Positions 25,401 through 44,238 of a stretch of 64,000 nt of DNA are shown piece after piece. The notes under the pieces were generated by a model. The model saw only the letters and a program-made list of their open reading frames with translations, made no database searches and was not told the origin of the DNA. How positions within the stretch are numbered: position 1 is the stretch's first letter; every line of letters starts with the position of its first letter. Source of the DNA: Escherichia coli (GTDB lineage Bacteria > Pseudomonadota > Gammaproteobacteria > Enterobacterales > Enterobacteriaceae); assembly GCF_044324875.1 (NCBI RefSeq), contig NZ_CP172185.1, one strand, 5' to 3'. The position numbers were made by a program, and so were the translations under genes.

Positions 25401-27479
25401 TTAAATCAATGCCGATTTATCAATTCCCAGTCGCTTCATCCGTGACAGCAGAGTCGTGCGTTTCAGCCCCAGACGTTGCGCAGCGCCTTTAGGCCCGGCA
25501 ACCACGCCGTTGGTTTCTTTCAGCACGCGAACAATCAACTGATATTCATCTTCGCCCTCCTGGGCGACAACCGTTGCGGCAGGCGGCGTTTCAGGCTCCG
25601 GTAAAGCAATATCAGGCAATGACAGCTGCAGCACGTTGCCGCGTGTTAGCAATACCGCGCGCTCAATGACGTTTTCCAGTTCGCGTACGTTACCCGGCCA
25701 CTCCATGTTGCTCAAGGTGCGCAGCGTCTCGGCAGGAATGCTGTCGATATTGCGCCCCAGACGACGGGCAATTTTGAAGGTAAAGGCTTTCGCCAGCAGC
25801 GGAATATCTTCCGGACGCTCGCGTAGTGGCGGCAGGTGAATCGGGAATACGTTCAGGCGGTAATAGAGATCGCTACGGAACTCACGGTCGGCGACCATTT
25901 TTTTCAGATCGCGGTTAGTTGCGGCGATTAGACGCACGTCCGTCTGAATGATTTTGTTGCTGCCGAGACGTTCAAACTCCTGTTCCTGTAATACACGCAG
26001 CAACTTCGGCTGTAACTCCAGTGGCATATCGCCCACTTCGTCGAGGAACAGGGAGCTTTTATCCGCCAGTTCAAAACGACCGATACGCTGGGCGCTGGCA
26101 CCGGTAAAAGCCCCACGCTCATGACCAAACAGATCGCTCTCCAGCAATCCGGCAGGCATCGCCGCGCAGTTCATTTTGACCATGCGGCGATTATTACGCC
26201 CACTGAGATTATGGATAGCACGGGCAATCAGCTCTTTACCCGTGCCAGTTTCACCGAGGATCAGCACGGTACTGTCACTTTGCGCCACCATTTCAACTTG
26301 TTTAAGCACGCTGTACATGGCTTCGCTGCGGCCAATAATCTCGCCAAATTCACTATCAACATTGTTGAGCTGCTCGGTCAGGGCGAGGTTTTCATCAACC
26401 AGCCGTTCTTTCAGACGATGGATTTCCTGATAGGCGAGGGCGTTATCGACAGCGATTGCCACACGTTCGGCAATCTGGCGCAGTAAATTCAGATTGGTAG
26501 TGGTAAACACTTTCTCTTCGCATTGCGCCAGTTTCAGCACGCCCAGCATGGTGTCGCCAGACATCAGCGGTAACAGGCACAAGGTTTGAATCTGGTTGCC
26601 CCAGGTGTCGAACAACATGCGTTCATAGGGGGCTAAATCGTCCCGCTCGTGGAGATTAATCAGCAGCATCTCTTTGCTTTTGAACACGCGTTCGGTGAGG
26701 GTTCCGGCTTCATCGACTTCGCTCTGTTCGTGGGCGGGATGCTGTTTATCAAGATAGTGAGTGGAGTAGATGTTGAGTTTGTTTTTACGGTGGCTGCGTA
26801 AGACGATGCTGATATCGTCAATGTCGAAGTAGTAATGGATTTCTTTGGCGACTTCGCTGACCAGTTCGTCCATATCCAGGCGGGAAAGCACCGCGTTGGT
26901 AATGGCAACCAGGATGCGGAAGTTATCGCGCTCCCGGCATAACAACTCATAGTCGACATTATTGACGACGCGGCTCTGGATTTGTTCGGTGACGACAGAA
27001 ACGATCTGCGTAAATGTTTGCAGACGATTGAACTCTTTTTCGCTCCAGGGGCGATCGTCATAACGAATAAATTCACAGCCACCAAAAATATGCCCTTCCG
27101 CCGCCAGTGGCATCAGGCAATAGTGACCAAATTTGGGGTATAGCCCACCTGCGGCCAGCTGCGGCCAGGTTTCACAAAATTCTTCGTAACTGCAATGCAG
27201 CGTATCAGGGCGCGACAAAATGCTGCGTACCGGACCGTGTGCCAGAACAGTTTCGTCTTCATATTTAATGGGGGTGTCTTTTTCACGCGATGCGTAATAA
27301 GACGCACGTTGAGTCTGCGCTTGCCACAACACAATAGCCGCGTTGTCGGCGAGCGCAGAACGCTTTACCAGTTGCGAAAGAGCCTCACACAGCGAGGCCA
27401 GATCGGGCTGCTGCAATAGTGTCCGAGTGATGTCGAACAACCCTTGTTGTCCGAGATCACTCATCGGTGTATATGACAT
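25401..27479 (-). CDS. fhlA: Formate hydrogenlyase transcriptional activator (sigma54 enhancer-binding protein)
   Basis: Start set at MSYTPMSDLGQQGLFDITR...; GAF domains, AAA+ motif [15 protein letters not shown]-terminal HTH. Confidence 0.95.
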   Translation of the reverse strand: MSYTPMSDLGQQGLFDITRTLLQQPDLASLCEALSQLVKRSALADNAAIVLWQAQTQRASYYASREKDTPIKYEDETVLAHGPVRSILSRPDTLHCSYEEFCETWPQLAAGGLYPKFGHYCLMPLAAEGHIFGGCEFIRYDDRPWSEKEFNRLQTFTQIVSVVTEQIQSRVVNNVDYELLCRERDNFRILVAITNAVLSRLDMDELVSEVAKEIHYYFDIDDISIVLRSHRKNKLNIYSTHYLDKQHPAHEQSEVDEAGTLTERVFKSKEMLLINLHERDDLAPYERMLFDTWGNQIQTLCLLPLMSGDTMLGVLKLAQCEEKVFTTTNLNLLRQIAERVAIAVDNALAYQEIHRLKERLVDENLALTEQLNNVDSEFGEIIGRSEAMYSVLKQVEMVAQSDSTVLILGETGTGKELIARAIHNLSGRNNRRMVKMNCAAMPAGLLESDLFGHERGAFTGASAQRIGRFELADKSSLFLDEVGDMPLELQPKLLRVLQEQEFERLGSNKIIQTDVRLIAATNRDLKKMVADREFRSDLYYRLNVFPIHLPPLRERPEDIPLLAKAFTFKIARRLGRNIDSIPAETLRTLSNMEWPGNVRELENVIERAVLLTRGNVLQLSLPDIALPEPETPPAATVVAQEGEDEYQLIVRVLKETNGVVAGPKGAAQRLGLKRTTLLSRMKRLGIDKSALI

Positions 27480-27552
27480 TTTGTTCTTCCAGGAAAGCAC
27501 CGCAAAGCGGTGCAAAAGGTCATTGACTAACTATAGGAGATTTAGAATTTTA

Positions 27553-31217: not shown

Positions 31218-31240
31218 TGTTGATTATCCCTGCGGTGAAT

Positions 31241-31290
31241 AATGTCGATGATGTCGAAATGACACGTCGACACGGCGACGAAATTCATCT
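31241..31290. promoter_or_regulatory. Candidate FhlA upstream activating sequences in the hyp-hyc divergent region
   Basis: Inverted and direct repeats of TGTCGA/TCGACA (atgtcgatgatgtcgaaatgacacgtcgacacggcgacgaaattcat) between two sigma54-type promoters. Confidence 0.35.
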
Positions 31291-31843: not shown

Positions 31844-31967
31844 GCTGAGGCTTTGCCCGTTTTGCAGGCGTTACGCCTGTTTGGGGATGGGCGTGTCGAT
31901 GAGTGTCGAAAATGACATTTCATCGGCATGTTTTCGTCAAAAATGACAATCACCTGAGGAATGCCTG

Positions 31968-42292: not shown

Positions 42293-42548
42293 CGGATTTT
42301 ATCCTGTTATCAGTAGGGTAGATGTAGTTGTTATCAGTCGACGTGACGGAAAAATGCCGATGCTGAAACGGAATTAGGAAACCGGTTTCACAAAATCATG
42401 AATAGTTGTCACTAAATAAGCAAGAGAGTTAATTGTTCATTTTTTATATTTGTGAAACCGGTCACCTGAATATTTTTCCCGCCGATTGCGCAAGGACAAT
42501 CGGCAAACGGTGCAGTACACTGCGTTGATTGCGTGTAAAGGGATGAAA

Positions 42549-43562
42549 ATGACGACGACGATGCTGGAAGTGGCGAAGCGCGCCGGGGTTTCAAAAGCGA
42601 CCGTTTCCCGCGTGCTTTCAGGTAATGGCTACGTCAGCCAGGAGACTAAAGATCGCGTGTTTCAGGCGGTAGAAGAGAGCGGTTACCGTCCAAACTTGCT
42701 GGCGCGCAATCTGTCGGCGAAGAGTACTCAGACGCTGGGGCTGGTCGTGACCAACACACTTTACCACGGCATTTATTTTAGTGAATTACTCTTTCATGCC
42801 GCGCGAATGGCGGAAGAGAAAGGGCGACAGTTGCTATTGGCAGATGGTAAACACAGCGCCGAAGAAGAGCGCCAGGCGATTCAGTATCTGCTGGATTTGC
42901 GCTGCGACGCCATTATGATTTACCCGCGTTTTTTAAGTGTGGATGAGATCGATGACATCATTGACGCGCACAGTCAGCCGATAATGGTGCTTAATCGCCG
43001 CCTGCGCAAAAATAGCAGCCATAGCGTCTGGTGCGATCATAAACAGACCAGCTTTAACGCCGTGGCAGAGTTGATAAACGCCGGACATCAGGAGATTGCT
43101 TTCCTTACCGGCTCGATGGATTCCCCCACCAGCGTTGAACGTCTTGCCGGGTATAAAGACGCGCTGGCGCAGCATAGTATTGCGCTCAATGAAAAACTTA
43201 TCGCTAACGGTAAATGGACGCCCGCCAGCGGGGCCGAAGGGGTAGAAACGTTGCTCGAACGTGGGGCTAAATTTAGCGCGTTAGTTGCCAGTAACGACGA
43301 TATGGCGATAGGTGCGATGAAAGCGTTACACGAGCGCGGCGTAGCGGTGCCAGAGCAGGTGTCAGTTATCGGATTCGATGATATCGCTATTGCCCCCTAC
43401 ACCGTTCCGGCTCTCTCCAGCGTAAAAATTCCGGTGACTGAGATGATTCAGGAAATTATTGGACGGCTGATTTTTATGCTCGATGGCGGGGATTTCTCAC
43501 CGCCGAAAACCTTCAGCGGAAAATTGATCTGCCGCGACTCACTCATTGCCCTTTCGCGATAA
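42549..43562 (+). CDS. ascG: LacI/GalR-family repressor of asc operon
   Basis: Start set at MTTTMLEVAKRAGVSKATVSRVLSG...; HTH then periplasmic-binding-like domain. Confidence 0.92.
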   Translation: MTTTMLEVAKRAGVSKATVSRVLSGNGYVSQETKDRVFQAVEESGYRPNLLARNLSAKSTQTLGLVVTNTLYHGIYFSELLFHAARMAEEKGRQLLLADGKHSAEEERQAIQYLLDLRCDAIMIYPRFLSVDEIDDIIDAHSQPIMVLNRRLRKNSSHSVWCDHKQTSFNAVAELINAGHQEIAFLTGSMDSPTSVERLAGYKDALAQHSIALNEKLIANGKWTPASGAEGVETLLERGAKFSALVASNDDMAIGAMKALHERGVAVPEQVSVIGFDDIAIAPYTVPALSSVKIPVTEMIQEIIGRLIFMLDGGDFSPPKTFSGKLICRDSLIALSR

Positions 43563-43575
43563 ACATTGTCATCAC

Positions 43576-43610
43576 ATGTCATCGTCACTAGTGTCGATGA
43601 CATCGTTTTT
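43576..43610 (+). terminator. Intrinsic terminator after ascG
   Basis: 28 bp near-perfect palindrome atgtcatcgtcactagtgtcgatgacat followed by TTTTT. Confidence 0.6.
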
Positions 43611-43710
43611 CCTGCATTGCAGAATTTAATTTCTTTAAATAACAGTAAATTAAAAACTGGCATGATTTGTGAATGTATCGGCGCATTAACTGTCATTGCT
43701 GGAGAATTTG

Positions 43711-44238
43711 ATGAACCGTTTCATCATTGCTGACGCGAGTAAATGTATTGGTTGCCGTACCTGTGAAGTGGCGTGCGTGGTTTCTCATCAGGAGAATCAG
43801 GACTGTGCATCGCTGACCCCGGAAACTTTTTTACCGCGAATCCATGTCATTAAAGGTGTGAACATTTCTACGGCGACCGTCTGCCGTCAGTGTGAAGATG
43901 CACCGTGCGCTAACGTCTGCCCGAATGGTGCTATCAGCCGTGATAAAGGGTTTGTTCATGTGATGCAGGAACGTTGCATTGGTTGCAAAACCTGCGTTGT
44001 GGCTTGCCCGTATGGCGCGATGGAAGTGGTGGTACGTCCGGTGATTCGCAACAGCGGCGCGGGGCTGAATGTACGGGCTGACAAAGCCGAAGCCAATAAA
44101 TGCGACCTCTGTAACCATCGTGAAGACGGCCCGGCGTGTATGGCGGCTTGCCCGACCCATGCGCTGATTTGTGTCGATCGTAATAAACTTGAACAACTGA
44201 GCGCAGAAAAACGTCGCCGTACGGCGCTGATGTTCTAA
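43711..44238 (+). CDS. hydN: Electron transport ferredoxin-like protein HydN
   Basis: Start set at [22 protein letters not shown]... (GGAGAA RBS); four 4Fe-4S motifs. Confidence 0.93.

Follow-up and report, generated by a model that had tools for sequence, protein, structure and literature searches.

The 28-bp palindrome that lies between ascG and hydN in Escherichia coli is very probably the upstream activating sequence (UAS, or enhancer) of the sigma-54-dependent hydN-hypF promoter, where it would be bound by FhlA. This reading draws on the anatomy of the element, its conservation, its spacing and the identity of the promoter, together with the dependence of the operon on FhlA and formate that is described in the literature. 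From these we infer FhlA as the bound protein, the number and placement of its subunits, and the bending of the DNA by IHF. The first-pass annotation had taken a terminator of ascG as the probable function and a protein-binding site as the second possibility; that order is reversed here in favour of a protein site serving hydN, given the information content of the arms, the retention of the element where ascG is missing, the spacing to the promoter and the layout of the core.

Results

The palindrome in the ascG-hydN intergenic region

The DNA analyzed (the window) was a stretch of 64,000 nucleotides from E. coli contig NZ_CP172185.1 comprising the hyp-hyc-asc-hydN-hypF-nor region, in reversed orientation with respect to K-12 (K-12 coordinate = 2,881,816 minus window position). 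Positions 43563-43710, to which the first-pass annotation had drawn attention, are exactly the 148-bp ascG-hydN intergenic region. On the plus strand this is preceded by the TAA stop codon (43560-43562) of an ORF at 42486-43562 that matching E. coli genomes label ascG, and followed by the coding sequence of hydN (43711-44238), the first gene of the regulated operon, with a Shine-Dalgarno GGAG at 43701-43704 and an ATG at 43711. A transcript 3' terminus assigned to hydN (PMC10687069, supplementary file 4) maps to window position ~44365 (K-12 2837451, minus strand) in the hydN-hypF gap, just before the start of hypF (~44391), and suggests that some transcripts terminate or are processed between hydN and hypF.

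Read directly, the ascG stop is followed by ACAT, TGTCATC, ACA, the palindrome (arms ATGTCATCGTCACT and AGTGTCGATGACAT; 43576-43603, either strand), CG and TTTTT. The palindrome begins 13 nt past the stop codon and is self-complementary at 26 of its 28 positions, with 13 of 14 arm pairs matched and a single T/T mismatch pair. Among zero-spacer palindromes with 14-bp arms it ranked first in the 64-kb window, the runner-up having 11 of 14 pairs, and 13 of 14 was attained in only 3 of 200 window shuffles. The earlier description of a near-perfect 28-bp palindrome and a TTTTT run directly after the ascG stop was thus borne out, with a CG preceding the T run. The latter (T5, 43606-43610, plus strand) forms, with the RNA hairpin of the palindrome, a terminator-like structure which may have a secondary role in Escherichia.

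Within the palindrome, a conserved 26-bp core (43577-43602) comprises four YGWCR pentamers, TGTCA (43577-43581), CGTCA (43583-43587), TGTCG (43592-43596) and TGACA (43598-43602), arranged around a variable 4-nt centre, CTAG (43588-43591). The inner 14-mer CGTCA-CTAG-TGTCG (43583-43596), which has the layout YGWCR-N4-YGWCR, is the putative core site of an FhlA dimer. An extra promoter-distal half-site, TGTCATC (43567-43573, plus strand; pentamer P1, TGTCA), precedes the palindrome. The repetition of TGTCATC/GATGACA motifs upstream of hydN that had been pointed out previously was also found on counting, with three copies within 36 bp (at 43567, 43577 and, on the minus strand, 43596) as compared to 15 in the window as a whole.

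The palindrome element had one match within the window, and a 56-bp form of it occurred at a single place in 5425 of the 5426 complete E. coli genomes, a single-copy distribution on which a dispersed palindromic repeat of the REP/BIME type was rejected. Rfam covariance models gave no match at an E-value of 1 or better across 43300-43900. A sigma-70 promoter-like arrangement, ATGACA-17-CAGAAT at 43597-43625, was also discarded as no better than chance (1 found versus 1.2 expected).

Conservation of the element across hydN loci

The region upstream of hydN was compared in 80 loci (L001-L080), one per species, together with an asc-less E. coli locus (L081) and the window, giving 82 in total. The genera included Escherichia, Salmonella, Citrobacter, Klebsiella, Raoultella, Enterobacter, Kluyvera, Kosakonia, Lelliottia, Trabulsiella and Cedecea, as well as others. 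The pattern TGTCATCGWCA-N4-TGWCGATGACA was present upstream of hydN with three mismatches or fewer in 81 of the 82 loci, and 46 loci of the set formed by the window and L001-L080 matched this 26-bp pattern with no mismatch at all. In an alignment of 81 loci anchored on the palindrome centre, the arms carried 1.89 bits per position, compared to 0.86 for the 4-nt centre, at which 19 different tetramers were observed, and 0.35 for the flanks. Only one arm position was variable, being T..A in 52 loci, T..T in 25 and A..T in 4. The inner 14-mer, CGTCA-CTAG-TGTCG in the window, reads CGTCA-N4-TGACG in most genera, and the N4 spacing of this inner core was the same in all loci. The additional upstream pentamer (YGWCA) is located 7 bp before the first pentamer of the palindrome in most genera and 10 bp before it in Escherichia; the block containing it carried 0.88 bits per position.

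The sole locus which lacked the outer palindrome arms was that of Enterobacter sp. Ag1 (L050). It retains the inner core, CGTCAAAAGTGTCG, 59 bp from the -24 GG and ~120 bp upstream of hydN, an indication that the essential part of the element may be the inner 14-mer.

The sigma-54 promoter and the spacing of the proposed enhancer

The sigma-54 (-24/-12) promoter of hydN-hypF, CTGGCATGATTTGTGAA, is located at 43657-43673 on the plus strand, with the GG at 43659-43660. It is letter for letter the sigma-54 ChIP-seq site OS26, which was assigned to hydN, is flagged as experimentally confirmed in EcoCyc and has a start site predicted 27 bp before the gene (PMC4591121). Placed on the window, this prediction corresponds to position 43684. 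The Salmonella counterpart of the promoter, TGGCACGATTCGTGTATA, was bound by sigma-54 in ChIP-chip, and hydN-hypF in Salmonella is tabled as both FhlA- and sigma-54-dependent (PMC3844500). A 2025 review, citing Maier et al. 1996, describes hydN-hypF as a member of the formate regulon whose expression is enhanced by formate-FhlA (PMC11841067). The sigma-54 promoter was kept in all hydN loci compared.

The palindrome centre lies 69 bp upstream of the -24 GG and at about -94.5 from the predicted start, within the range of roughly 80-150 bp upstream of a bona fide -24/-12 promoter that is expected for a UAS. This is the normal place for a bacterial enhancer. Across the loci the distance from the centre to the -24 GG was bimodal, being 68-71 bp in 51 loci and 58-61 bp in 30, while 62-67 bp was seen in none. 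About one helical turn separates the two modes. The loci come from related species and are not independent, and such spacing is suggestive support for an enhancer.

Between palindrome and promoter, in an A/T-rich tract, the plus strand carries an IHF-like site, TAACAGTAAATTA (43640-43652; WATCAR-N4-TTR with one mismatch). In 63 of the 82 loci a site of this kind, with one mismatch or fewer, occupies the same position, -18 relative to the T of TGGCA, and the position in the window would be one at which IHF binds. The order of enhancer, IHF-like site and promoter at hydN is the usual layout of such regions. What distinguishes a UAS, namely selection on both sequence and helical phase with a bending site in between, was seen here in the information content of the arms, the distances to the promoter and the IHF-like site.

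A second sigma-54 promoter of the window, that of norV (49330-49460, minus strand), has three GTCA-N3-YGAC NorR sites and an IHF-like site which abuts TGGCAC. The activator of norVW is a GAF-domain enhancer-binding protein (see PMC2831303). The norVW enhancer of NorR (~49400-49460) resembles the hydN region in having GTCA...YGAC inverted repeats, a sigma-54 promoter and an IHF-like site. It differs in consisting of three separate GTCA-N3-YGAC units (GT-N7-AC), whereas at hydN there is one compound palindrome with an N4 core; the NorR half-site is almost identical to the pentamer at hydN, but the spacing is one base shorter.

Comparison with known FhlA sites

The known FhlA enhancer regions of the window, namely the hypA-hycA intergenic region and the hycA-hycB gap, served for comparison. 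When the published 14-position FhlA matrix (PMC7658346, Table 2) was run over the window, the top matches were at 31904, 31243 and 31935, in the hyp and hyc regions. On this matrix the hydN inner core scored 6.9 bits, the fdhF core 8.3 bits and the hyc and hyp sites 12-18 bits, and a score of at least 6.9 bits was reached at 204 of 63,987 window positions, so that the matrix speaks neither for nor against a site at hydN. The 13 source sites of the matrix do not include the hydN core, since no C is counted at position 1. A 16-mer FhlA consensus, CATTTCGTACGAAATG, attributed to Leonhartsberger et al. 2000, had at least 7 mismatches at hydN and 5-7 at the hyc and hyp enhancer regions, also a poor fit. 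Fitting neither hydN nor the regions upstream of hyc and hyp, this consensus could not be used as a test.

The layout YGWCR-N4-YGWCR is common to the hydN inner 14-mer, the fdhF motif CGTCAAAACTGACG (centred at ~-104.5 upstream of K-12 fdhF), the motif CGACACGGGTGTCG upstream of hyfA, the hyp sites at 31904 and 31935 and the hyc site at 31243. It occurred 18 times in the window against 5.2 expected, a number reached in none of 100 shuffles; outside long ORFs there were six matches, four of which are the hyc site, the two hyp sites and the hydN site. The hyc, hyp and hydN elements also have the 9-mer TGTCGATGA in common (found 5 times versus 0.53 expected) and are among the four densest pentamer clusters of the window. 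Dense YGWCR clusters or matrix-like matches were also noted inside coding regions, at 26953-26997 (in ORF 25401-27500, probably fhlA) and at 42944-42966 (in ascG), where they are probably driven by Asp, Ile and Val codons.

The UAS regions of fdhF, hyc, hyp and hyf are like that of hydN in having clusters of YGWCR pentamers upstream of the sigma-54 promoter of a formate-induced operon, and the fdhF core CGTCAAAACTGACG agrees with the hydN consensus at all ten specified positions. The hydN element nevertheless stands apart as a near-perfect 26-bp palindrome of four pentamers, the fdhF, hyc, hyp and hyf sites being less symmetric with A-rich centres. Comparable arrays of same-direction and mirrored pentamers are present at hyc (31236-31280) and hyp (31890-31950). 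In those two enhancers the pentamers are offset by 8-9 bp and the cores are N3 or N4, while at hydN the offsets are 6 bp and the core is N4. The distance from core to GG is likewise longer at fdhF (79 bp) and hyc (81 bp), both counted by hand, than at hydN (69 bp, or 58-59 bp).

Outer and inner pentamers at hydN are offset by 6 bp and so lie on different faces of the helix. This is hard to reconcile with a description in the literature of FhlA as binding to one side of the DNA. In the literature that could be searched in full text, no hydN site sequences, no FhlA ChIP or DAP data and no report of direct FhlA binding at hydN were found.

Linkage of the palindrome to hydN rather than ascG

An AscG ortholog, 74-87% identical outside Escherichia, ends just before the palindrome in ~66 of 81 loci, and the ascG-hydN synteny is therefore old. 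The palindrome was nonetheless kept in 13 of the 14 loci without an adjacent AscG-like ORF, among them Salmonella arizonae and diarizonae, E. albertii and two Citrobacter, and the inner core was present in all 14. Within E. coli, ~727 of 5426 complete genomes (~13%) have no ascG beside hydN. In the asc-less E. coli locus examined (L081, 3990-4160), homology to the window begins again at 43557, immediately at the stop codon of ascG; the closest gene on the upstream side is encoded on the opposite strand. This lineage has a perfect palindrome (CGACA...TGTCG), in place of the T/T mismatch of the common allele.

Scanning of metagenomes with the 26-bp pattern returned at least 120 stretches, of which 80 copies were fetched and examined. 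A hydN-like coding sequence adjoined the palindrome in 80 of 80, with the HydN start 108-124 bp downstream in 78; in one copy (L094) the match begins at HydN residue 27 (191 bp), and in another (L118) the contig ends at the palindrome so that hydN is cut off. Among these copies the full 26-bp palindrome was seen at hydN only. Since it is kept in loci without ascG and stands beside hydN in metagenomic DNA, the palindrome travels with hydN.

Alternative explanations

That the palindrome is primarily a Rho-independent terminator of ascG, acting as an RNA hairpin with a U-tract and without specific protein binding, is improbable. As with such terminators, a hairpin and a T-run directly follow a stop codon in E. 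coli: the element begins 13 nt after that codon, its position after ascG is old (~66 of 81 loci), and RNA from 43574-43612 forms a hairpin of -13.1 kcal/mol (z -3.9, a value that 1 of 200 shuffles attained), with a U-U mismatch, ahead of CG-U5. A consensus terminator scan, however, did not call the palindrome, owing to its internal mismatch, and five or more T come after it in only 12 of the 68 loci in which ascG precedes it. Unlike in Rho-independent terminators, it is the sequence of the stem which is kept and not merely its pairing; the stem is invariant, without covariation except at the one W position, while the loop drifts. The stem of E. coli, the lineage with the T-run, is A/U-rich and weakened by the T/T mismatch (-13 kcal/mol as opposed to -21 to -23 kcal/mol in other genera), and in those other genera with stronger stems the U-tract is mostly absent. 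The palindrome is moreover retained where ascG is missing, including the E. coli locus with an opposite-strand gene upstream. No ascG 3' end was present among the entries listed in the supplements of PMC7815308, PMC12207403 and PMC10687069, which, for a weakly expressed gene, is a weak negative. Because the U-tract is rare and the arms are conserved as sequence with no compensatory change, termination is not the conserved function of the palindrome, and may at best be a secondary, Escherichia-specific role. The ascG terminator proposed in the first-pass annotation thus keeps its hairpin and CG-U5 in the window but loses its place as the leading explanation. A combined use in Escherichia, in which the hydN enhancer would also terminate or insulate ascG transcription, with either the RNA hairpin or a roadblock of bound FhlA as the means, is a tentative possibility. 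The hairpin and CG-U5 are present in all Escherichia loci with an adjacent AscG ORF (the window, L002, L003, L004 and L006), and the T-run is also retained in asc-less E. coli (L081). Against it, a CG separates the T-run from the stem, which is A/U-rich and mismatched, and the T-run was lost in asc-less E. albertii (L005), a single locus that fits relaxed selection.

Binding by a protein other than FhlA, such as its paralog HyfR, another enhancer-binding protein of which NorR would be an example, or a factor specific to hydN, is only slightly less improbable than a terminator without protein binding. In its favour, hydN alone carries the 26-bp palindrome in full, the score of the site on the published FhlA matrix is weak, and the NorR sites of the window have a very similar half-site. 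Their spacing is N3, however, against N4 in the hydN core of all loci, and a NorR site at hydN was rejected on this difference; moreover, the literature assigns hydN-hypF to FhlA and formate (PMC11841067, PMC3844500). A role of the palindrome as operator for AscG, a repressor of the LacI/GalR type whose gene lies just upstream, is extremely improbable, the sole points in favour being adjacency to ascG and the palindromic shape. LacI-family operators have a conserved central CG. The palindrome bears no resemblance to that family, its centre being the variable part, and the element is unchanged where ascG is absent, in Salmonella and in asc-less E. coli. Because the palindrome survives the loss of ascG, the operator was rejected.

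Discussion

An enhancer bound by FhlA remains the preferred explanation of the hydN palindrome, and from it a mechanism can be proposed. FhlA, a formate-sensing enhancer-binding protein, would place its C-terminal helix-turn-helix domains on the YGWCR pentamers, with the inner pair CGTCA-N4-TGWCG as the core dimer site. The outer TGTCA/TGACA pair and the extra upstream TGTCA would provide auxiliary contacts, possibly for the FhlA tetramer that has been reported, which the four pentamers would fit. The A/T-rich tract with its IHF-like site would bend the DNA, allowing formate-activated FhlA, ~94 bp upstream of the start, to contact the closed complex of RNA polymerase and sigma-54 at 43657-43673. 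Hydrolysis of ATP by FhlA would then open this complex and lead to transcription of hydN-hypF.

A more elaborate possibility, which we regard as rather unlikely, is that hydN has a distinct super-site of four half-sites plus the distal pentamer, engaging an FhlA tetramer in a manner different from that at hyc, hyp and fdhF, and that in Escherichia the T-run has been co-opted as a terminator or roadblock. If this were true, a single DNA element would be both enhancer and terminator, insulating a sigma-54 operon from ascG read-through.

The link of FhlA and formate to hydN-hypF has been known since the 1990s, and HypF is needed for the maturation of all [NiFe] hydrogenases. Switching of this operon by FhlA and formate is thus established already, and what is added here is the definition of a precise and highly conserved site. 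The comparison with other enhancers suggests that current FhlA matrices, dominated by sites of the hyc and hyp type, under-score cores of the CGWCA type as found at fdhF, hyf and hydN. The hydN element is not a new kind of system; it supplies a precise, testable DNA element for a known regulatory link. Its unusual symmetry, together with near base-for-base conservation across the Enterobacteriaceae, would make it well suited to structural or footprinting studies of DNA recognition by an FhlA oligomer.
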